Assembly: GCA_046760505.1 (NCBI GenBank)
Contig: JBHIEG010000039.1
Location: 1-13,252 of the forward strand
Reading direction: 5' to 3'
DNA from: Candidatus Hydrothermarchaeota archaeon
Lineage (GTDB): Archaea > CAYFZR01
DNA: 13,252 nucleotides
Part shown: one piece after another, positions 2,546-13,099 of the stretch
Layout of the letters: every line of letters starts with the position of its first letter
Position numbering within the stretch: the stretch's first letter is position 1
Made by a program: the position numbers and the translations under genes
The notes under the pieces: model-generated
Told to the model about the DNA's origin: nothing
What the model saw: only the letters and a program-made list of their open reading frames with translations
Databases searched by the model: none

Positions 2546-3190
2546 CTAGCATTTAATGCTCTTCATTATCTCGAGTATTTTTTCGCTTTGGGGATAACCA
2601 ACTGCGTAATGAATCTTTTTTTCACAAACCCAAAACAAAGAGTAACCTTCTCTACCATTTTCAAAAACAACCTTGGAGAGGGTAGCATTCTTTCCTTCTT
2701 TAAAGATCAAAGTAGAGTTTAACTCTTCTTTTATGTCCAGATATCCAGCTAACCTGCTCTTGAAAATTTCCGGGTTATCGATGATGTTCATGGACACCTC
2801 GGTTATTGAGCTGTTGTGATTCGAAATTTTAAGAATTCTAATGCCGTAAAAATCTGTTTTAGCCATCCTCACACTCCAATCTTTCGGAACTATAACGTAA
2901 TTGTCCGGATTTTTTACATCACCTATTTTAGGATTTAGGTAAAAAATTAGGGAAATTGACGCAATACAAAATAGGATTATCATTCCAAAGAAGAAGAAAG
3001 AAAGAATCCTTATCCAGTTTCTTTTTTCTTTAAAAAGAACTTTTGGTCTTTCATAGGAATTTTCTTCGATTCCTAGTTTATCTAGGATCTCCCTTCTCCT
3101 TCTTTCATATTCCTCATCAGAGATCTTGCCTAGTTCATAGTACGTCGTTAGTTGATCTAGTTCCATCCTTAATCTTTCTTCTTCTTCCAT
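2546..3190 (-). CDS. Hypothetical single-pass membrane protein with an N-terminal SHOCT-like domain
   Basis: 'ELDQLTTYYELGKISDEEYERRRREIL' matches the SHOCT (also GvpG-like) pattern. One TM helix (about aa 61-85) follows a basic stretch, and the C-terminal domain is unrecognised. Confidence 0.7.
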   Translation of the reverse strand: MEEEERLRMELDQLTTYYELGKISDEEYERRRREILDKLGIEENSYERPKVLFKEKRNWIRILSFFFFGMIILFCIASISLIFYLNPKIGDVKNPDNYVIVPKDWSVRMAKTDFYGIRILKISNHNSSITEVSMNIIDNPEIFKSRLAGYLDIKEELNSTLIFKEGKNATLSKVVFENGREGYSLFWVCEKKIHYAVGYPQSEKILEIMKSIKC

Positions 3191-3263: not shown

Positions 3264-3324
3264 AATGAGTAATGGATTGTGGAGGAGTAAGTTAAAGAAA
3301 CAGGTTAAAAAGGTGAAGGACGCC

Positions 3325-3849
3325 ATGATAGAGTTAAGGTTTCATGGGAGAGGAGGACAAGGGGCTGTAACCGCTGCTTCACTTTTGGTTTCCGCAGCCA
3401 TTGAAGAGGGAAGATATGCACAAGCGGTACCTAGTTTCGGACCAGAGAGGAGAGGTGCTCCGGTAGAAAGCTATGTGCGCATTTCAGACGAACCTATACT
3501 CGCAAGATACGATGTTTTGGAACCTGAGTACGTAATAGTACTTGATCCCACCTTGCTGAACGTTGTAGATTATAGGAAGGGATTAAAGGAAGGTGGAATG
3601 CCTATATTAAACCTTCCTACAAGACCCAATGAAAAAGGGGTTGCATGGGTAAATGCTACCGATCTTGCCAACGAGATTCTCGGAAAACCCATAACAAATA
3701 CGGCCATGTTAGGTGCTTTACTAAAGGTAAAGCGTCTTGTCAATTCTAGATCCTTGAGAAAGGCCATAAAGGACCAGTTTCCTGGTAAACTTGGCGAAAA
3801 AAATTGTAATTTAATAAGAAAAGCCTATAAGGAGACTGAAATACTATGA
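3325..3849 (+). CDS. porG: Pyruvate/2-oxoacid:ferredoxin oxidoreductase gamma subunit (likely start ATG 3325, not 3265)
   Basis: MIELRFHGRGGQGAVTA, FGPERRGAPV and NTAMLGAL motifs. SD AGGTGA lies shortly upstream of ATG 3325. Confidence 0.93.
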   Translation: MIELRFHGRGGQGAVTAASLLVSAAIEEGRYAQAVPSFGPERRGAPVESYVRISDEPILARYDVLEPEYVIVLDPTLLNVVDYRKGLKEGGMPILNLPTRPNEKGVAWVNATDLANEILGKPITNTAMLGALLKVKRLVNSRSLRKAIKDQFPGKLGEKNCNLIRKAYKETEIL

Positions 3850-4127
3850 GTTGGAGAGAATTGCCAATTGGTGCTGTAATAAAGGGAGGAGCAACATCTT
3901 TGGTAAATAAGACAGGTTCTTGGAGAACAATGCGTCCGGTAATTATGTACGATAAATGCACAGACTGCGGTATATGCTGGCTTTACTGTCCTGATTCTGC
4001 CATAAGAAAAACAGAAAAGGGAAATTATGAAATAGACTACGAGTACTGCAAAGGATGTCAAATTTGCGCTGCAGAATGTCGTGTTGGCGCAATAGAAACT
4101 GTTGCGGAGGAATATAAAAGTGATTAA
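3846..4127 (+). CDS. porD: Pyruvate/2-oxoacid:ferredoxin oxidoreductase delta subunit (2x[4Fe-4S])
   Basis: KTGSWRTMRP motif and two ferredoxin motifs, CTDCGICWLYCP and CKGCQICAAEC. ATGA overlap with porG. Confidence 0.93.
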   Translation: MSWRELPIGAVIKGGATSLVNKTGSWRTMRPVIMYDKCTDCGICWLYCPDSAIRKTEKGNYEIDYEYCKGCQICAAECRVGAIETVAEEYKSD

Positions 4128-5241
4128 GCCATTGACAGGTAATTATGCAGTAGCAGAAGCCGTCAAACTCTGTGATGTAGATGTTATCGCTGCCTACCCT
4201 ATAACACCATCTACCCAGATGGTAGAGAGGATTTCAGAAATGGTGGCAAATGGAGAAATTGATGCTGAATTCATACCTGTAGAATCCGAACACAGTGCGA
4301 TGAGCGCCTGCATAGGGGCTTCTTCAACTGGTGCGAGAGTATTCACTGGAACCGCTTCTCAGGGTCTTGCATTGATGCACGAAATGCTATTCGTTGCCTC
4401 GGGAATGAGACTCCCGATCGTTATGGGGGTTGGAAACAGGGCACTTTCTGCGCCACTTAGCATTTGGTGCGACCATAATGATACTTTGGCTCAAAGAGAT
4501 TCCGGATGGATACAATTTTATGCTGAGAACTCTCAAGAGGCTCTAGATCTTATATTCATAGCGTATAGAACTGCTGAGCATCATGAGGTGCAGTTGCCTG
4601 CTATGGTCTGTTTAGATGGATTCATACTCACTCACACGGTAGATAGGGTAAATGTACCTGAAAAAGAACTGGTTGATTCTTTCTTGCCCCCAAGAGATCC
4701 TATATATACGGTAAATCCTGAAGTCCCAACCACTATGGGTGCGTATGCGTTTCCAAGCCATTACTTTGAGTTCAGGAGGCAGCAGGAGGAAGGAATGAGA
4801 AATGCAAAGAAATTGCTTCCAGAATTTACCAAAGAGTTCCTAAAAATATTTGAGAGAAAATACGGATTCTTTGAGATTCTAAATCCAGAGGCAGAAACTT
4901 TCTTTTTTGCAATGGGTTCCTCATGCACGACAATGAAAGGCTTAATTCAGGGGAAGGATGATCTCGGATTGTTAAAGTTAACAGTTTTCAGACCTTTTCC
5001 CTATGAGGAACTGGAGAAGGCTCTAAAAAGCGCTGAAAGGGTGATAGTAGTGGATAGAGATATTGCACCAGGAGCACAAGGTGCCATTCTATATGGAGAG
5101 GTAAGGAATGCACTGTACGAGACAGGAGTAGATGTTATCAACGTGATAACAGGCCTAGGTGGAAGAGACATTAGACCTGATATACTTGAAAAGGCGCTCA
5201 AATTGGAAAAAGGAGTACACTTTTTGGGGTTGAGAGAATGA
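4120..5241 (+). CDS. porA: Pyruvate/2-oxoacid:ferredoxin oxidoreductase alpha subunit (likely start GTG 4120)
   Basis: GNYAVAEA, AAYPITP, ESEHSAMS, TASQGLALMHE, NRALSAP, FRPFP and GLGGRD motifs. SD GGAGG at 4106-4110. Confidence 0.93.
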   Translation: MIKPLTGNYAVAEAVKLCDVDVIAAYPITPSTQMVERISEMVANGEIDAEFIPVESEHSAMSACIGASSTGARVFTGTASQGLALMHEMLFVASGMRLPIVMGVGNRALSAPLSIWCDHNDTLAQRDSGWIQFYAENSQEALDLIFIAYRTAEHHEVQLPAMVCLDGFILTHTVDRVNVPEKELVDSFLPPRDPIYTVNPEVPTTMGAYAFPSHYFEFRRQQEEGMRNAKKLLPEFTKEFLKIFERKYGFFEILNPEAETFFFAMGSSCTTMKGLIQGKDDLGLLKLTVFRPFPYEELEKALKSAERVIVVDRDIAPGAQGAILYGEVRNALYETGVDVINVITGLGGRDIRPDILEKALKLEKGVHFLGLRE

Positions 5242-6143
5242 AGATGTCTGAAATTCCATTGGAAGAATACTTTGCAAAGGGACATAGAGCCTGCCAAGGC
5301 TGTGGGGTAACTATCGCAGTTAGGCTTGCAATGAAGGTAATCGGGAAAAATTCCATCATTCCCTGCGCCACAAGTTGTTTAGAGATTGTATCCACGCCCT
5401 TTCCTGAAACTGCATGGGAAGTTCCATGGATTCATGCAGCCTTTGAATGTGCAGCCGCTGTTTCTTCAGGCATAACAAGAGGCATAGATGTCTTGATGAG
5501 AAAGGGAAAATGGAAGGGTGAAAAACCTAAAATCGTTGCCTTTGCGGGAGATGGAGGTACTTTTGACATTGGGCTTCAAGCTCTTTCCGGCTCATTAGAG
5601 AGAGGAGACGACTTCACATACATTTGTCTGGACAACGAGGCTTATATGAACACAGGGATTCAAAGATCCGGTGGTACCCCCTATGGGGCTTGGACCACGA
5701 CAAGTCCGCCGGGAAAATTGAAGATAGGCAAGGAAGAGTGGAAAAAAGATCTCGCTGCAATCGTAGCTGCGCATCATATACCCTACCTCGCTACCGCAGG
5801 TATAGCACAACCAATGGATCTCCTCACCAAGGTAAAGAAAGCAGTTGAAACGGAAGGACCGAGTTTCATACACATTCAATGCCCATGTCCAACGGGATGG
5901 AGATTTGAACCACATCAAACCGTTATTATAGCCAGAATGGCTGTTCAGACAGGAATGTGGGTCTTGTACGAAGTAGTGAACGGCGAGATGAATCTAACTT
6001 ATCACATAAGATCTAGGAGACCGGTTAAAGATTATTTGAGGGCTCAGGGAAGGTTTAAGCATCTCTCAGATGAGGATATAAACTACATCGATGAGATCGT
6101 AGAGAGAAGATACAAAGAGTTATCAGAGAAGAGACTTATATAA
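5238..6143 (+). CDS. porB: Pyruvate/2-oxoacid:ferredoxin oxidoreductase beta subunit (TPP-binding)
   Basis: GHRACQGCG, the TPP motif GDGG...DNEAYMNTGIQRS, CPTGW and YLRAQGRFKHL. ATGA overlap with porA. Confidence 0.94.
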   Translation: MKMSEIPLEEYFAKGHRACQGCGVTIAVRLAMKVIGKNSIIPCATSCLEIVSTPFPETAWEVPWIHAAFECAAAVSSGITRGIDVLMRKGKWKGEKPKIVAFAGDGGTFDIGLQALSGSLERGDDFTYICLDNEAYMNTGIQRSGGTPYGAWTTTSPPGKLKIGKEEWKKDLAAIVAAHHIPYLATAGIAQPMDLLTKVKKAVETEGPSFIHIQCPCPTGWRFEPHQTVIIARMAVQTGMWVLYEVVNGEMNLTYHIRSRRPVKDYLRAQGRFKHLSDEDINYIDEIVERRYKELSEKRLI

Positions 6144-7229
6144 ACCCAGAAGGTGGAGATTCCCCACGTGGACGTTATTTAAATATTTCTTAGAAGTCTC
6201 CAGACATTTCTTAACCTGCGAGAATGGAGTAACAGATAGATCCTTCATGTAAAATTGAGGGTGAAACACAAGAAGACTGTAAGGTATATCTCGATCAAGG
6301 TCTGATATGAATCTTGCAATACCCTCCACTTCCTTTTCATCTACGTATCCTGGCACAAGTAAAGTCGTTGCAGTGAGCAGTGGAACCTCCTTTCTTTCTT
6401 CATAGAAGTTGTGGTATATCATCTCGAAGTTTTTGTAGGCCTCTTCGTTAGAAACACCTGATAAAGCAAGACTTAGGGTAGGGGAAAAGGTTTTTAGATC
6501 AAACTTGATAATACCTCCACTCTCCAATGAGATTTTGGCTAATTTTTTCACCAAATTTTTGTTACCACAACCATTCCATTCCATACAAATTCTTACTAGT
6601 CTATCAGCCTCTTCTAAAATCTTCCTAGATGCTCTAATTACAAAAGGAAGCTGAGGCTCAGGAGAGCCCCCAAAATAACAGACACAACTTATTTTACCGT
6701 TACTCTTAATTTTATGAGTAAAATCGGATATATCGACCAGTTGGGAGTTTTCCAAATTTTTATGAGAGTAATTTTGACAGAACAGGCAACTGAAATTACA
6801 TCCATAGAAAAAAACAGCGTAATTATAGTATCCTAGCTCGCCGGATTTTCTGTAACTGTACTTTGGATATCCTCTTCCAGTTGCAGGACAGAACCATGCA
6901 GCGCAGCAATTAGTTATGTGTGGATCCAGATACGAGTACAGGAGAGCCCTATTCCCGCTTACTTCTGAGTGGAATTTCCCATTCTTGTTCCATCTGAGTC
7001 CACAGTATCCTCTCTTCCCTTCACTGATCCTGCATTTATTAGAGCATAAATTGCAAGATATTCCTTTTTCTCTTGGAGGCATTATTGGGAGATCGTATGG
7101 AAGCCTTGCATTTTGATGACTCTCTATTATGTAAGGAAGTGCTTCTTCACTTGATCGGATACAATCAGCACATATGCCCAGAATTTTAGAAACACTAACT
7201 TCTCTGCCGCATATTCGACATCTTCTCAT
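6123..7229 (-). CDS. Radical SAM protein, PFL-activase/AmmeMemoRadiSam-like with a Cys-rich N-terminus
   Basis: CNFSCLFC (CxxxCxxC), GGSPEP, KFDLK, TTLLVPGY and FHPQFYM motifs. The N-terminus carries CxxC...CxxC, CxxCxxxC...C and a NCCxxWFC segment. Confidence 0.88.
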   Translation of the reverse strand: MRRCRICGREVSVSKILGICADCIRSSEEALPYIIESHQNARLPYDLPIMPPREKGISCNLCSNKCRISEGKRGYCGLRWNKNGKFHSEVSGNRALLYSYLDPHITNCCAAWFCPATGRGYPKYSYRKSGELGYYNYAVFFYGCNFSCLFCQNYSHKNLENSQLVDISDFTHKIKSNGKISCVCYFGGSPEPQLPFVIRASRKILEEADRLVRICMEWNGCGNKNLVKKLAKISLESGGIIKFDLKTFSPTLSLALSGVSNEEAYKNFEMIYHNFYEERKEVPLLTATTLLVPGYVDEKEVEGIARFISDLDRDIPYSLLVFHPQFYMKDLSVTPFSQVKKCLETSKKYLNNVHVGNLHLLGLYKSLL

Positions 7230-7244
7230 GGATTAATTTTCCTT

Positions 7245-8510
7245 TCAATCACTTAAAGACCTTTGCCTTCTTACGTATAGCCTAAGTCCCTTGATATCTT
7301 CTACGACAACAGGAGTATCTTTTTCTATATCCCCCTCTAGGGATATGGCTTTCCAAATTTCTCCATGAATCTTGACCTCGCCCTCTGGTTTCAGTGGGGT
7401 TATGGTGATTCCTTCAAGCCCAACCATTCCCTCTCTTCCAGTAGTAGGTTTTCTTTTGAATGTTCTTATTACCGCTCCCAAAACAAGGATAAAGAAGCCG
7501 GCCGTTACAATTACGCTGGCCAATATCAAGTTGAAGGATACTTTGATGAATGGTTCTTTTTCTACATTAGGTAGTAACAAAGAACCCAGTATTAGAGATA
7601 TTATGCCCCCTACGGTTAAAGCACCGTAGGTAGGTGTGAGGAGTTCTGCAATGAATAAAATCAACGCAAAGATTATTAACGCTATTCCAGCCTTGTTCAT
7701 GCTTAAAACATTAAAGGACCATAGGGCTAGAATTATGCATAAACCGCCAAGAACTCCGGGTATCGTAGCACCAGGATTTGAAAGCTCTAATATTATACCA
7801 TAGATTCCTATCATAAAGAGTACGTATGCCACGTTTGGATTCGATAGGGTGTGGAGAATTTGTTGGCGCAGAGTCATCTCCTTGTACGTTAATCTTAGAT
7901 CTTTGGTGCTCAAGGTAATGTTCTCACCCTTTACACTAACATTTCTGTTATCTATCTTCTCTAATAAGACAGTTGTATTATCAGCGATTAATTCTATTAC
8001 GTTGAATTTTAATGCTTCTTCTGGAGTCGCAGACATGGATTTCCTTACTGCATACTCTGCCCAAGTGACGTTTCTGTGGTGTCTTTCTGCAAGAGCCTTC
8101 ATATAGGATGCAAAGTGTTCCGTTATTTTTTCAGGCACCTCTCCCTGACCCGTAATCTCTACTGGATGTGCTGCCCCTATTGTAGTGCCAGGAGCCATGG
8201 CGGCTATATGACTTGACATGAGAATAAATGTTCCCGCTGAAGCGGCTCTCGCGCCTGAAGGATAAACGTAAACTACCACAGGAGAATCGGAAGATTCTAT
8301 ATCTTTTACAATTTCCATCATAGAATCGCCCAATCCTCCAGGCGTATCTATTCTGATTATAATTATGTAATTCTCCTCTAAAAGAGATAGGTGGACGTAT
8401 TCTGCCACGGTAGGATCTATTACTCCTTTTACATCCAGTACTAATCCCTGCTTTCCAAAGACAGGAGCCATTATGAGCAGAATTATAAAGAGTATTAATC
8501 TCCTTCTCAT
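7245..8510 (-). CDS. nfeD: NfeD-family membrane-bound serine protease (ClpP-like domain, TM bundle, C-terminal OB-fold)
   Basis: Signal peptide, IDTPGG, ARAASAGTFI (catalytic Ser), APGTTIGAAHP and a Lys in 'PEKIT'. Several TM helices follow, then C-terminal 'PTTGREGMVG...PLKPEGEVKIHGEIWKA'. Confidence 0.92.
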   Translation of the reverse strand: MRRRLILFIILLIMAPVFGKQGLVLDVKGVIDPTVAEYVHLSLLEENYIIIIRIDTPGGLGDSMMEIVKDIESSDSPVVVYVYPSGARAASAGTFILMSSHIAAMAPGTTIGAAHPVEITGQGEVPEKITEHFASYMKALAERHHRNVTWAEYAVRKSMSATPEEALKFNVIELIADNTTVLLEKIDNRNVSVKGENITLSTKDLRLTYKEMTLRQQILHTLSNPNVAYVLFMIGIYGIILELSNPGATIPGVLGGLCIILALWSFNVLSMNKAGIALIIFALILFIAELLTPTYGALTVGGIISLILGSLLLPNVEKEPFIKVSFNLILASVIVTAGFFILVLGAVIRTFKRKPTTGREGMVGLEGITITPLKPEGEVKIHGEIWKAISLEGDIEKDTPVVVEDIKGLRLYVRRQRSLSD

Positions 8511-8557
8511 ATAGGAACTTTAAAATATTGAGTATATATTTATGTTTAGTGTTCAAA
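8511..8557. promoter_or_regulatory. Compact divergent promoter region shared by nfeD and rfcS
   Basis: 47-nt AT-rich gap between ATG 8510 (-) and ATG 8558 (+), with a central TATATATTTA tract and no obvious SD for either gene. Confidence 0.5.
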
Positions 8558-9514
8558 ATGGATATCCCTTGGACGGAAAAATACAGACCAAAGCGGCTTT
8601 CTGAAATTGTAGGTCAAGAGGAGATTGTGAAAAGACTGGAAACCTATGTGAAACTAAGAAATCTACCACATTTACTCTTTGCAGGAGGAGCCGGAGTAGG
8701 AAAAACTACATGTGCTTTAGTTCTTGCGAGAGAATTTTTTGGAGAAGAGTGGCACAGAAATTTTTTGGAATTAAATGCAAGCGACGAACGCGGGATAGAT
8801 GTTGTTAGAAATAAAATTAAGGACTTTGCTAGGACCATACCTCTCGGGGAGCACGGTTTCAAGATAATTTTTTTGGACGAGAGCGATGCTTTAACGCCGG
8901 ATGCTCAGAATGCTCTGAGGAGAACAATGGAGAGATATACGGCTACTTGCAGGTTTATTCTTTCCTGTAACTATTCTAGTAAAATTATACCTCCTATTCA
9001 ATCTAGATGCGCCTTGTTTAGGTTTAGGCCACTGAATTCTGAAGATATGACAAAAAGACTTAAATATATAGCGGAAAAAGAAGGAGTAAAGCTTGAAGAT
9101 GGCGCCATTGAAGCGACCATTTACATATCAGAGGGGGATATGAGGATGGCGATAAACATACTGCAAGCAGTATCTTCATTTGGAGAGACAGTAAATGCTG
9201 AGAAGGTTTATGAGATAGCAGGTACGGCGAGACCAGCAGATATAAGAGATATGATCAAACTGGCCTTACAAGGTAATTTTATGGGGGCCAAAGAAAAATT
9301 GGAGAATTTACTCACGAATTACGGAGTTTCAGGTTTAGACGTTATCAAACAAATCCACAAGGAACTCTTCAACCTAGATATACCCGATAAATTGAAGATT
9401 TTGATGCTTGATAAGACTGGAGAATTCGAATTTAGGCTGGTTGAGGGGAGCAATGAGAGAATACAACTTGAGGCATTGCTGGCGAATTTTGCTCTCTTAG
9501 GTAAAGGTGGTTGA
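8558..9514 (+). CDS. rfcS: Replication factor C small subunit (clamp loader), no intein; likely start ATG 8558
   Basis: PWTEKYRP, Walker A GGAGVGKT, ELNASDERGID, Walker B FLDESD, AQNALRRTME, IQSRC and GDMR motifs. Confidence 0.96.
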   Translation: MDIPWTEKYRPKRLSEIVGQEEIVKRLETYVKLRNLPHLLFAGGAGVGKTTCALVLAREFFGEEWHRNFLELNASDERGIDVVRNKIKDFARTIPLGEHGFKIIFLDESDALTPDAQNALRRTMERYTATCRFILSCNYSSKIIPPIQSRCALFRFRPLNSEDMTKRLKYIAEKEGVKLEDGAIEATIYISEGDMRMAINILQAVSSFGETVNAEKVYEIAGTARPADIRDMIKLALQGNFMGAKEKLENLLTNYGVSGLDVIKQIHKELFNLDIPDKLKILMLDKTGEFEFRLVEGSNERIQLEALLANFALLGKGG

Positions 9515-10421
9515 AATAACAATTTCAGGGCTCTCCTTCTCAAGGGAAATGGTAGAGAAGAACATACTTGTTATGGGGAAGGTAGACTATGAAGCCAGCC
9601 TTAAGATCTACAAAAAGGTGGGAGAAACGGGTTATGACAGGATAGCCTTCATAGGCAAGCGTGACTTGATAAAAACTCTTCCATGCGATTTGAGAATTTC
9701 ATGGCGAGAAATAAAAAATGATTCAATTATCGTTCCCATAGATTACTTTGAGATGAGCGAGTTTGAGTCATTGTATCATGCTGCGGCGGGATACCATCCT
9801 TCTTTTGAGGAATTAAAAATCTTGGAAAGAATACTTAATACTCTAAAAGAAAAGGGAAAAAACAAAGCCCAAGATTTTCAGGATATTGCTGAGGAGATTC
9901 TTGAAAGCGAAGGCGGCAGTGCAATTGAGAAAATAGTAATAAAATTAGTCGGCGGAGCTACGGAACGCTTATCTTGTGTACTGGGTGACGAAAGAGGACT
10001 GGAAAAAATGAAAGGAGACATTGTGATAGACGCTACGGAATTACCGGGTACCGGACAGAGAGCAATGCTTTTTACGCTCGCGAGCAGAATCCCTGCCTCG
10101 AATCTAGTAGTTTTTTTTGATAGGGGTGAAGTGCTCGCAGAAACCTCTCCATTCATAAGTTACGATTATACAATATTCAATGAATTGAGAAGGAGAAATA
10201 TTTTCTTTTTCCTGATCATAGAAAGCCTTGAGGGTATTCCAAAGATAATTCTGGATCAATTCAGGTATCATCTCGTAGGAAGGTTAAAAAAATTTGAGGT
10301 ATCTATACTTAGGGATTTCTACAAAATGGAAGCCAAGTTAGCTGATATAATTCTAGACCTCCCAGAAGGAGTCTTTTTGTTATTCAAGGATAATAAGTTC
10401 ATAGACGTTGTAGAGGTGTAA
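9507..10421 (+). CDS. Hypothetical protein; probable inactivated HerA/FtsK-superfamily (DUF87-like) P-loop ATPase
   Basis: Intact 304-aa ORF overlapping the rfcS stop by 8 nt. Segments collinear with HerA-family motifs are present, but the catalytic residues are substituted (see findings). CDS status is confident; the family call is by eye. Confidence 0.65.
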   Translation: MVEITISGLSFSREMVEKNILVMGKVDYEASLKIYKKVGETGYDRIAFIGKRDLIKTLPCDLRISWREIKNDSIIVPIDYFEMSEFESLYHAAAGYHPSFEELKILERILNTLKEKGKNKAQDFQDIAEEILESEGGSAIEKIVIKLVGGATERLSCVLGDERGLEKMKGDIVIDATELPGTGQRAMLFTLASRIPASNLVVFFDRGEVLAETSPFISYDYTIFNELRRRNIFFFLIIESLEGIPKIILDQFRYHLVGRLKKFEVSILRDFYKMEAKLADIILDLPEGVFLLFKDNKFIDVVEV

Positions 10422-10423
10422 CT

Positions 10424-11353
10424 TTGAGGAGCATCTTATCGGTTTTAGACTACAAGGATGTATTATTTGATCTGCTAAATTTTTCTAAATTTTTGAAAGA
10501 ACACAAGTTTCAGGAATTATTGAAGGGTAAAAGCCTTGGGATGATATTCGAAAAGCCTTCTACTCGCACAAGAGTCTCATTTGAAGTAGCAATGACCCAA
10601 CTAGGTGGTCATGCGCTGAATCTTTCTCCCGGAGATTTACAGCTTGCAAGAGGAGAATCAATAGAGGATACTGCAAGAACCTTAAGCAGATACGTCGATG
10701 CAATAATGATTAGGGCTAAGAAACATGAAAATTTGGAGCTTTTTGCTGAATACTCAGGCGTTCCTGTTATCAACGGCTTAACTGAAAGAGAACATCCATG
10801 CCAGGCTCTTGCAGATCTATTTACAATAAGAGAACACAAAGGTTTCGAATGCAAACTGGTCTGGATCGGAGATGCAAATAATGTTTGCAATTCTTTAATG
10901 CTTGGCTCATCTATTTTAGGCATGGATATGGTAGTTTCGTCCCCTAAGAAATACAAACCAAGACCAGAGATTTTCAATATTGCTAAAAAACTCTCAAAAG
11001 AGACTGGAGGAAAAATAGCGTATATAGAAAACCCAAAAGAAGCAATAAAAGATGCAGACATAGTTTATACAGATGTATGGGTGAGCATGGGAGACGAAGA
11101 AGAATACGAAGATAGAATCATCGCCTTTAAACAATATCAGGTTAATAAAGATCTCTTAGAACATGCTAAGGATGATTACATATTCATGCATTGCCTCCCT
11201 GCTCAGAGGGGACTGGAAGTAACTGACGATATAATCGATGGAAAAAATTCGGTTGTATTCGATCAGGCTGAAAACCGGCTTCATACCCAAAAGGCTTTAT
11301 TAGTATATGTGATGCTTGGAAGGCAGGCAGTAAGGAGGTTTTTGCATGGGTAA
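10424..11353 (+). CDS. argF: Ornithine carbamoyltransferase
   Basis: FEKPSTRTRVSFE (carbamoyl-phosphate site), HPCQ, TDVWVSMG, FMHCLP and QAENRLH motifs. TTG start preceded by GAGGT. Confidence 0.96.
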   Translation: MRSILSVLDYKDVLFDLLNFSKFLKEHKFQELLKGKSLGMIFEKPSTRTRVSFEVAMTQLGGHALNLSPGDLQLARGESIEDTARTLSRYVDAIMIRAKKHENLELFAEYSGVPVINGLTEREHPCQALADLFTIREHKGFECKLVWIGDANNVCNSLMLGSSILGMDMVVSSPKKYKPRPEIFNIAKKLSKETGGKIAYIENPKEAIKDADIVYTDVWVSMGDEEEYEDRIIAFKQYQVNKDLLEHAKDDYIFMHCLPAQRGLEVTDDIIDGKNSVVFDQAENRLHTQKALLVYVMLGRQAVRRFLHG

Positions 11354-12602
11354 GACGATGGCTGAGAAGATACTTAGCAAAAAATCTGGAAGAGATGCTT
11401 ATGCCGGAGATATAGTGCTCGCCGATGTAGATTTCGCCATGGGTCAAGACGGTACTACTCCTCTGGCGATAAAGTCATTCAACGAAATGAATGGAAAAGA
11501 AGTATGGAATGGGGAAAAAATCGCATTTGTAATCGACCATAGTGCGCCAAGCCCAAACGAAAAAATATCATCTCTCCATAAAATGATGAGAGACTTCGCA
11601 AAAAAAAACAGGATTAGTGTTTACGACATAGGCTCTGGAATATGCCATCAGGTAATTGTAGAAAATGGCCATGTACTTCCTGGCTCACTCGTAGTTGGTG
11701 CAGATTCTCATACTTGCACCTATGGTGCATTAGGAGCCTTTTCCACAGGTATTGGAAGCACTGACATGGCTGCGGTATTCATATCAGGGAAATTATGGTT
11801 TAAGGTACCGGAAACCATAAAGTTTACTATCAACGGAAACTTACAGGCAGGAGTTTACTCAAAGGATCTTATTTTATATTTGATTGGTAAAATGGGAAGC
11901 GATGGTGCAACATATATGGCTTTGGAATTTGAGGGGGACACTATTTCTTCTTTAAGCATGGATGCAAGAATGACTATTTGTAACATGGCAGTTGAGATGG
12001 GTGCCAAGACAGGAATGATAAAGGCGGATGAAAAGACGATAGAATGGCTGAGAAAAAGAACTTCTAAAAATTTTGAGGTTATAGATAGCGATGATGACGG
12101 TAGCTTTAACAAAGTAATAGAAGTTAATGCCTCTGATATTTCTCCTATGATTTCTTGCCCACATGCAGTAGATAACGTTAGACCTGTAGAAGATGTAGAA
12201 GGAATTGAAATAAACCAAGCCTTTTTGGGAACCTGTACCAACGGAAGACTTGAAGATTTAACCATAGCCGCGAAAATATTGAAAGATAAAAAAATAGATG
12301 AAAATGTAAGGATGATCGTTGCTCCAGCCTCGAGAGAGGTATTGATAAGGGGAATGGAAACAGGAATCATCCAAGAACTAATAAGGGCTGGTGCATGTCT
12401 AATATCGCCAGGATGCGGTCCGTGCGTGGGAACGCATCTTGGAATCCCGAGCGATGGAGAGAATGTTATATCTACGGCGAATAGAAACTTTAAGGGAAGA
12501 ATGGGTAACAGCAATTCATTTATATATCTCGCATCTCCCGCAACAGTAGCGATCTCAGCACTTCATGGAGAAATAAGAGATCCGAGAGAGGAGATAAAAT
12601 GA
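11346..12602 (+). CDS. 3-isopropylmalate dehydratase/homoaconitase family large subunit (LeuC/HacA)
   Basis: GKTMAEKIL, DH, GICHQ, GADSHTCT and NMAVEMGAK motifs; [4Fe-4S] ligands in GTCTNGR and CGPC; NRNFKGRMG and ASPAT. Substrate specificity is not resolved, so no symbol is given. Confidence 0.92.
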   Translation: MGKTMAEKILSKKSGRDAYAGDIVLADVDFAMGQDGTTPLAIKSFNEMNGKEVWNGEKIAFVIDHSAPSPNEKISSLHKMMRDFAKKNRISVYDIGSGICHQVIVENGHVLPGSLVVGADSHTCTYGALGAFSTGIGSTDMAAVFISGKLWFKVPETIKFTINGNLQAGVYSKDLILYLIGKMGSDGATYMALEFEGDTISSLSMDARMTICNMAVEMGAKTGMIKADEKTIEWLRKRTSKNFEVIDSDDDGSFNKVIEVNASDISPMISCPHAVDNVRPVEDVEGIEINQAFLGTCTNGRLEDLTIAAKILKDKKIDENVRMIVAPASREVLIRGMETGIIQELIRAGACLISPGCGPCVGTHLGIPSDGENVISTANRNFKGRMGNSNSFIYLASPATVAISALHGEIRDPREEIK

Positions 12603-13099
12603 TTTTTGAAGGAAAGGCTCATAAATTCGGAGACAACATAAATACGGATTACATCATCTCCGGAAAGTATAAGTTCTCTACTCTAGACATGAAAGAACTA
12701 GCAAAACATTTGATGGAGGATATAGACCCTAATTTCTACGAGAAAATCACTCCGGGAGATATAATTGTTGGAGGAAAGAATTTTGGTTGCGGCTCAAGCA
12801 GGGAGCAGGCACCTCTGGTAATAAAGCATGCCAACATTTCATGCGTTATAGCAAAGAGTTTTGCGAGAATATTCTACAGAAATGGAATAAACATAGGACT
12901 TCCTCTGATAGAATGCGAATCCGTTGATGAAATAAGCGATGGAGACTTAATCACTGTAAATTTAGAAGAAGGCAAGATAATAAACAGGACCAAGAATAGA
13001 GAGATTAAAACGAAAAAATTACCAGAATTCATGCTTAGAATACTCAGAGAAGGCGGTCTTGCAGAGCACTTTAAGAAGCATGGCGGTTTTAATTTCTAA
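12599..13099 (+). CDS. 3-isopropylmalate dehydratase/homoaconitase family small subunit (LeuD/HacB)
   Basis: [23 protein letters not shown] and [16 protein letters not shown] motifs. ATGA overlap with the large subunit. Confidence 0.92.

Follow-up and report, generated by a model that had tools for sequence, protein, structure and literature searches.

A genus-restricted protein with a HerA/FtsK-like fold and without catalytic motifs, a probable pseudo-ATPase, encoded between rfcS and argF in a Candidatus Hydrothermarchaeota archaeon

Archaeal HerA (Sulfolobus solfataricus, PDB 4D2I; DUF87, PF01935, plus HAS-barrel, PF09378) is a protein of about 500 amino acids (aa). Its critical residues are given in excerpts of PMC4351679 as K154, D176, E356 and R381, the last being the arginine finger, the trans partner of E356; in the same excerpts, the ATPase or ATP-dependent nuclease activity of the K154R, E356Q and R381K variants is lost or strongly reduced. 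For DUF4297-HerA, an extract of PMC11291478 describes the trans action of an R/K pair. In the portions of PMC5715905 at hand, the K154A variant binds neither ATP-gamma-S nor double-stranded DNA, and a C-terminal brace (D461-E467) stabilises the hexamer; the "inactive HerA" mentioned there is this engineered K154A mutant. Here, an open reading frame (ORF) of a Candidatus Hydrothermarchaeota archaeon is described, whose product has the fold of such ATPases and has lost their catalytic motifs. It lies on contig JBHIEG010000039.1 of assembly GCA_046760505.1, in a stretch of 13,252 nucleotides (nt) that was analysed as a whole (the window), and is listed as follows:

9507-10421, + strand: the ORF under study, 304 aa, GTG start; a stand-alone, HAS-less ATPase-like domain of the HerA/FtsK superfamily without catalytic motifs

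Compared with archaeal HerA, the ORF product (304 aa) lacks the HAS barrel, the C-terminal brace, the Walker A Lys/Ser, the catalytic Glu and the sensor Gln. In fold it resembles a HerA/VirB4-type domain, but it is missed by the Pfam model and has neither the Walker motifs nor the nurA neighbour of HerA proper. In comparison with the C-terminal ATPase of VirB4 and the TrwB-type coupling proteins (PDB 4AG5, 1E9R), the catalytic motifs are absent, the root-mean-square deviation is high (6.0 Å), and no secretion-system or conjugation genes are found near the ORF. The STIV2 packaging NTPase B204 (PDB 4KFR) is an active enzyme according to its PDB title, with 204 residues and no long helical insert, whereas the ORF is flanked by housekeeping genes, and PHROGs gave no match to it. 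The degenerate FtsK-like D2/D3 domains of type VII EssC/EccC (PDB 6TV1, 9JV8, 4NH0) belong to a large membrane ATPase with an active domain in cis; the presumably dead domain of the ORF is in contrast free-standing, and its structural similarity to them is far below that to HerA/VirB4. Within the literature text searched, no natural stand-alone HerA-fold protein without catalytic motifs turned up, "pseudo-ATPase" was not found together with HerA, and "degenerate Walker" together with HerA and archaea led only to work on BREX, where the phrase means STAND domains. Inactive P-loop domains in general are well known.

Our reading, to which we assign a probability of roughly 0.6, is that the ORF encodes a native, genus-restricted pseudo-ATPase of the FtsK-HerA superfamily, which is kept by selection for a non-catalytic role, either structural or regulatory.

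The ORF product has a HerA/FtsK-like fold, with a core of the additional strand catalytic E (ASCE)/RecA-like type. This had been proposed from the order of its motifs in an earlier reading made without database searches (the sequence-only reading), and the motif strings quoted in that reading were all found in the translation at their given positions. The ESM Atlas model of the exact ORF sequence, which is alignment-free, showed a predicted template-modelling score (pTM) of 0.75. All ten structure rows listed for it (10/10) were clusters of HerA/VirB4-type P-loop proteins, nine of them mostly DUF87 and one mostly P-loop_TraG, with template-modelling scores by query of 0.79-0.84 over residues 1-304. 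Language-model features scored 0.95 against short DUF87/TrwB-type ATPases (339-373 aa), for the ORF product and for its single orthologue alike. Profile-profile alignment with hhalign gave E 0.037 and a probability of 1.4% against 28 full-length HerA sequences (aa 173-295); against the ATPase domains of 31 diverse archaeal HerA proteins, a score of 31.9 (E 0.0011, probability 20.7%) was obtained over 207 colinear columns covering aa 76-294. The scores of 60 column-shuffled queries were 16.0 +/- 2.5 (maximum 22.1) and that of the reversed query was 18.3. Since none of the 60 shuffles reached the real score, the resemblance to HerA over aa 76-294 is more than chance.

The AlphaFold2 (AF2) model was built from an input alignment with HerA rows over aa 58-304 only and none over aa 1-57. 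It displayed a mean predicted local distance difference test score (pLDDT) of 66.4 and a pTM of 0.62; a single-sequence run was unusable (pLDDT 37.9). When the model was compared with the PDB by Foldseek, Sulfolobus HerA (4d2i_A) was the top match (E 9.3e-10) among 75 at E <= 0.001, and the rows listed were HerA, VirB4, TdpAB, DndH or untitled cryo-EM entries (8wj3, 8wiv). VIA aligned residues 5-295 of the model to residues 122-450 of 4d2i_B, the searched chain having 458 residues. The fold matched solved members of the FtsK-HerA superfamily better than other P-loop classes. The identity to archaeal HerA was about 13-19% in MAFFT alignments. The elements of the domain are located as follows:

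9564-9599, + strand: strand beta1 (aa 20-23), shortened degenerate P-loop (GKVD, aa 24-27) and start of helix alpha1 (AF2 strand 20-23, helix 28-39); no Walker A Lys or Ser/Thr
9639-9656, + strand: strand beta2, RIAFIG (aa 45-50; AF2 strand 45-50); the HerA Asp (D176 in Sulfolobus) is Gly, and Cys in the orthologue
9753-9983, + strand: helical insert (aa 83-159), a HerA-type bundle between beta2 and the next core strand (AF2 helices 83-96, 100-116, 121-135, 138-148 and 151-159)
10104-10124, + strand: Walker B remnant LVVFFDR (aa 200-206; AF2 strand 200-205); Asp D205 kept, R206 at the position of the catalytic Glu
10182-10196, + strand: E226-L-R228-R229-R230, aligned with the invariant arginine-finger motif E-G-R-K of HerA
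10203-10226, + strand: sensor strand FFFLIIES (aa 233-240; AF2 strand 233-238), with E239-S240 in place of Q-R of the HerA S-Q-R-P
10359-10382, + strand: LPEGVFLL (aa 285-292), aligned with the HerA L-x-x-G-E-A; L285 and G288 in invariant columns (MAFFT alignments A6 and A7)

In the N-terminal half, NILVMGKVDYEAS spans aa 19-31 and includes GKVDYEAS (aa 24-31, nt 9576-9599), where the sequence-only reading had put the degenerate P-loop. The AF2 model agrees with this position: in a region where HerA rows were not supplied, it forms a strand (aa 20-23), a four-residue loop (aa 24-27), a helix (aa 28-39) and a further strand (aa 45-50) at pLDDT 71-82. The loss of the Walker A Gly and Lys was verified, as neither GK[ST] nor G....GK is present anywhere in either orthologue. 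The Lys and Ser/Thr would be expected at residues 29-31, which are not the same in the two proteins (EAS and KSI). The N-terminal 75 residues alone showed no significant sequence similarity, and hhalign restricted to the first 100 residues aligned them with an unrelated part of HerA (E 0.24). A different register, with ORF residues 1-10 under the HerA P-loop, was produced by MAFFT when the HerA domains were cut to start 45 residues ahead of the Walker A Lys. It was rejected because AF2 places the beta1-loop-alpha1-beta2 unit at aa 20-50 and because VIA matches residue 5 of the model to residue 122 of HerA, which lies about 30 residues ahead of K154. The next motif, RIAFIGK (aa 45-51), contains beta2; here the equivalence with D176 is taken from the strand register, without a significant alignment. 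The helical insert of HerA is present, since hhalign pairs aa 76-170 with it, and BLASTP gave weak colinear matches to the inserts of two HerA paralogues of the same genome.

The C-terminal half comprises IVIDATELPGTGQ (aa 172-184), LVVFFDRGE (aa 200-208), FNELRRRNIFFFLIIESLEGIPKIILDQFRYHLVGRL (aa 224-260) and LPEGVFLL. The replacement of the Walker B Glu by Arg was recovered in MAFFT alignments A6 and A7, where D205-R206 fall under the HerA E-E; hhalign gaps the HerA E-E-A-H segment instead, and there is no catalytic Glu under either alignment. E239 occupies the place of the sensor Gln, which had been described as lost. The Arg said to be retained corresponds to R228, which together with E226 falls in the invariant E-G-R columns of HerA (28/28 HerA rows in A6 and A7); the hhalign pairing agrees, making five alignments in total. 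Q251, L285 and G288 also pair with conserved HerA positions. In terms of the Sulfolobus enzyme, the equivalents of K154, D176 and E356 have been lost, and that of R381 has been retained. The protein ends 12 residues past LPEGVFLL, about where the HerA C-terminal brace would begin, and this brace is absent. The N-terminal HAS barrel is also absent, as stated in the sequence-only reading: the frame is open for 306 codons only, and the fold matches begin at model residues 1-5. No transmembrane segment was detected, the top Kyte-Doolittle mean over 19 residues being 1.56, in a stretch that contains E, E and K. Based on the loss of the Walker A Lys and Ser/Thr, the beta2 Asp, the Walker B Glu and the sensor Gln, the ORF product has most likely lost both the binding and the hydrolysis of ATP.

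The ORF is a real gene that codes for a protein; it is native to the genome and confined to one genus. A search of 5.8 billion clustered proteins returned, apart from the ORF protein itself, one orthologue (304 aa, 77% identity, gap-free), and an exhaustive phmmer search of 1.84 billion representatives returned the same single protein and nothing further. It comes from the sole other same-genus genome among 40 relatives. When a profile of the two orthologues was run against 301 archaeal genomes, matches were obtained only in the two same-genus genomes. Outside the genus the profile gave only weak matches (E >= 0.001 per genome), and no HerA-like frame was found among the best eight, which were inspected; judging by their motifs, two of these probably begin in the manner of isopropylmalate/homocitrate synthases, and another shows a P-loop of GTPase type. 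The host lineage is a sparsely sampled, deep archaeal one: among 300 relatives there is one same-genus genome, and the rest are labelled "same domain" only.

With Pfam, NCBIfam, PHROGs and PADLOC, no family could be assigned to the ORF or to its orthologue, the matches being at chance level (CbiK, E 0.14; ArlX, E 0.021). No Pfam family was found at E <= 0.01, and DUF87 was absent even at E <= 10. The sequence search of the PDB gave only annexin A8 (E 0.014), and the two-sequence profile gave nothing there. A whole-genome DUF87 search recovered three canonical HerA paralogues and missed the ORF; against these, the best BLASTP E values were 1.8, 0.45 and 0.015, over short helical stretches. A weak DUF87 match on contig C7 of the same genome was considered as a short HerA and rejected, because it is a P-loop protein of 316 aa, which we take to resemble a GTPase of the MeaB/ArgK type.

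The frame is intact and under purifying selection. The ratio of non-synonymous to synonymous substitution rates (dN/dS) between the two species was 0.125 (NG86) or 0.187 (YN00), at dS 0.72-1.01, and the start and stop positions are identical in both. Simple decay, for which a dN/dS near 1 had been named as the sign, is at odds with these values. The same ratios (NG86/YN00) were 0.061/0.069 for rfcS and 0.087/0.087 for argF, so that the ORF evolves faster than its neighbours. Conservation is uneven along the protein: aa 241-260 are 95% identical between the orthologues, as against 60% for aa 21-40, the P-loop block, which is among the least conserved. The GC content (0.389) and the GC content at third codon positions (0.393) are similar to those of the adjoining genes.

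According to the reading preferred here, a single HerA/FtsK-type domain with the HerA helical insert, and without HAS barrel or brace, would have survived as a structural or regulatory protein. Its best-kept segment, aa 226-260, corresponds to the HerA stretch from E-G-R-K to L-S-Q, which in HerA is situated at the subunit interface and includes the trans-acting Arg. Selection may maintain a protein-protein contact, or possibly a DNA contact, through this face; such a role is suggested because the most conserved block and the E-x-R motif fall in the subunit-interface part of HerA. A possible partner would be found among the three canonical HerA paralogues of the genome. These have about 500 aa each, two are preceded by NurA, and their matches are located on other contigs of the same genome (G000):

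C2, 93438-94073: HerA paralogue match (L011)
C2, 65584-66216: HerA paralogue match (L012)
C15, 43800-44414: HerA paralogue match (L013)

The third paralogue has a HAS barrel and a HerA_C match and lies between PhzF-like and amino-acid kinase genes. The closest named relatives of the host HerA are labelled Hydrothermarchaeales, at about 55% identity.

Several points weigh against the proposed pseudo-ATPase. With two sequences only, site-wise conservation and selection are poorly resolved, and the sequence-only library searches were all without match. For aa 58-304 the AF2, Foldseek and VIA evidence is not independent of the HerA hypothesis, the independent lines being ESM Atlas, the language model and hhalign; the hhalign probability is only 1.4-20.7%. 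The AF2 model is of low confidence in aa 1-8, 69-81, 91-97, 147-164 and 297-304, and the N-terminal register depends on this one model, MAFFT having preferred another. The HAS barrel and the C-terminal brace, which hold HerA hexamers together, are missing, and this speaks against a ring like that of HerA. R206 stands where the HerA Glu pairs with the trans Arg, and would probably clash with R228 if the protein formed a homomeric interface of the HerA type. A three-copy complex prediction (alignment A7) scored 0.00 against a mark of 0.42, and carries no weight in the question of self-association. Any partner named for the protein is conjectural. An unusual mode of nucleotide binding would also be conceivable.

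The gene had been described as coupled to rfcS, and this coupling had been taken as a hint of a replication or repair role. The features of the junctions are:

8528-9514, + strand: rfcS, replication factor C small subunit, upstream neighbour (NF001679, E 1.5e-152, 507 bits, cut-off 303; Rep_fac_C and AAA domains)
9507-9514, + strand: rfcS/ORF overlap of 8 nt, the GTG start of the ORF lying within the rfcS end (stop TGA)
10424-11353, + strand: argF, ornithine carbamoyltransferase, downstream neighbour (TIGR00658, E 2.2e-128), starting 2 nt past the ORF stop

The overlap is real, and the sister species keeps the order rfcS-ORF-argF with an identical 8-nt overlap; the functional link drawn from it is weak, as argF is 2 nt away and 28 other archaeal rfcS loci are unlike. 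The codons 1-14 differ between the orthologues by 5 synonymous and 3 non-synonymous changes, which indicates that the stretch next to the GTG start is translated. At the rfcS loci examined in 28 other archaeal genomes, no ORF-related downstream gene was found (best phmmer E 0.41), so the synteny does not extend beyond the genus. Four of these loci have an RfcL-like downstream gene, judged by its N-terminal motif, and, apart from two more, the others have assorted or no same-strand ORFs. At those two, the gene 3' of rfcS (257 and 295 aa; 4-nt overlap) was considered as a relative and rejected, with a phmmer E of 1.7 for one and no listing at E <= 100 for the other; their motifs are reminiscent of GTP cyclohydrolase MptA/FolE2. 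For six other archaeal genomes, the match to rfcS begins at query residue 57 or 82, inside open frames of 641-922 aa, as might be expected of intein-containing RFC small subunits. The possibility that the ORF is a divergent RfcL was rejected, because RfcL is encoded on a different contig; furthermore, the AAA+ module with RFC C-terminal domain that marks clamp-loader subunits is not found in the ORF product.

The other junctions of the region are equally close. The sequence GAGGTG stands immediately 5' of the ORF stop codon, at the argF junction. The overlaps between argF and hacA and between hacA and hacB are 8 nt and 4 nt, respectively, hacA and hacB encoding the two subunits, large and small respectively, of a homoaconitase or isopropylmalate dehydratase from the aconitase family. 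Since the 28 other loci are unlike and all junctions are tight, the linkage to rfcS is a single-genus feature of a tightly packed region. The link is weak, and both linkage and overlap are confined to one genus. The overlap most likely reflects the general tight, operon-like packing of the region and not a role in clamp loading.

The rival explanations differ in what they make of the lost motifs. The least unlikely of them is that the ORF is a domesticated remnant of a short HAS-less HerA/VirB4/packaging-type ATPase (~300-350 aa) from a mobile element or virus, which was inactivated after capture and took on a lineage-specific role. However, its composition is native, it is surrounded by housekeeping genes, neither an integrase nor a tRNA being seen among the annotated ORFs, and PHROGs and PADLOC gave no match; the profile-profile signal is to cellular archaeal HerA, the HerA-type helical insert included, and the taxa in the ESM Atlas rows are, according to the Atlas, not to be read as a sign of transfer. 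Unlikely as well, and ranked just after it, is a regulatory pseudo-subunit that would insert in or cap the ring of an active HerA paralogue or of another FtsK/HerA-type motor, donating R228 in trans, with co-translation with RfcS pointing to replication or repair. The position of E226 and R228 in invariant E-G-R columns, the presence of three HerA paralogues, two of them with an upstream NurA, and the rfcS overlap kept in the sister species are consistent with this, and an Arg-donating dead subunit would be mechanistically conceivable in view of the pairing of the HerA Walker B Glu with the trans Arg in the excerpts of PMC4351679. On the other hand, the ring-assembly elements (HAS barrel and brace) are missing, and R206 at the Glu position that normally pairs with the trans Arg weakens the model. 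Moreover, the ORF adjoins no HerA, nurA, mre11 or rad50, its neighbours being rfcS and argF, and NurA is found near HerA paralogues on other contigs; the rfcS linkage occurs in one genus only, with an equally tight argF junction.

An NTPase or nucleotide binder that works through non-canonical residues, such as K25 or the RRR cluster, is improbable. The ASCE core is kept, and G24-K25 and D205 are common to both orthologues, but the modelled beta1-alpha1 loop of four residues (aa 24-27) is shorter than a phosphate-binding P-loop, the residues at the helix start vary between the orthologues, and there is no Ser/Thr for Mg2+, catalytic Glu or sensor Gln. A somewhat lower probability still is given to an eroding, functionless HerA-derived duplicate that is open by chance. 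All catalytic motifs gone, a single genus and an evolution faster than that of the neighbours would fit such a duplicate; against it stand the gap-free frame of 304 codons in both species at dS ~0.7-1.0 and dN/dS 0.12-0.19, the conserved start and stop positions, and the confident compact fold given by the alignment-free predictor (pTM 0.75). The most far-reaching version, in which a dead HerA-fold pseudo-subunit or cap donates its Arg finger to an active motor and, held at a fixed ratio with RfcS by translational coupling, links clamp loading with DNA-end processing, is regarded as the least probable of all.

As for the surroundings, five genes of unrelated functions (rfcS, the ORF, argF and the dehydratase large and small subunits) occupy positions 8528-13099 on the + strand, with junctions of -8, +2, -8 and -4 nt. 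The string is operon-like and mixes replication with amino-acid biosynthesis. The TTG start of rfcS may be placed too far upstream, as the profile match runs from residue 11 and the sister-species gene has 324 aa and an ATG start. Divergent from rfcS, with 17 nt between the listed starts, is the gene of an NfeD-type membrane protein whose N-terminal domain is of the ClpP-like NfeD1b kind (7245-8510, - strand). It is followed by a radical SAM protein of 368 aa (6123-7229, - strand), with a weak likeness to AmmeMemoRadiSam and glycyl-radical activases, far below the cut-offs; the 3' end of its gene overlaps the porB 3' end by 21 nt in convergent orientation. A four-gene pyruvate:ferredoxin oxidoreductase cluster was found at 3265-6143 (+ strand), comprising the gamma subunit (PF01558), a ferredoxin-like delta subunit, PorA (NF040682, 495 bits, below the cut-off of 550) and PorB (NF008819, 420 bits, above the cut-off of 405). 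Also noted were a 214-aa ORF (2546-3190, - strand), whose first 40 residues bear a weak likeness to GvpG, a protein of gas vesicles (26.3 bits, under the gathering threshold of 30.6; E 8.6e-6), and an archaeal-type phosphoenolpyruvate carboxylase (393-1862, - strand; PF14010, E 7.2e-204).

Although an orphan to all sequence libraries, the protein was assigned to a superfamily when language-model structure was combined with profile-profile alignment against shuffled controls and with modelling that was in part alignment-free. The reach of the finding is limited by the two sequences from one genus and the weak replication link, and any functional role is putative. Molecular machines are repeatedly found to be regulated or scaffolded by pseudo-enzymes with the fold of motor ATPases. 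If the proposed contact with a HerA ring or with DNA holds true, the protein would allow the use of subunit interfaces and arginine fingers without catalysis to be studied in a simple natural setting.

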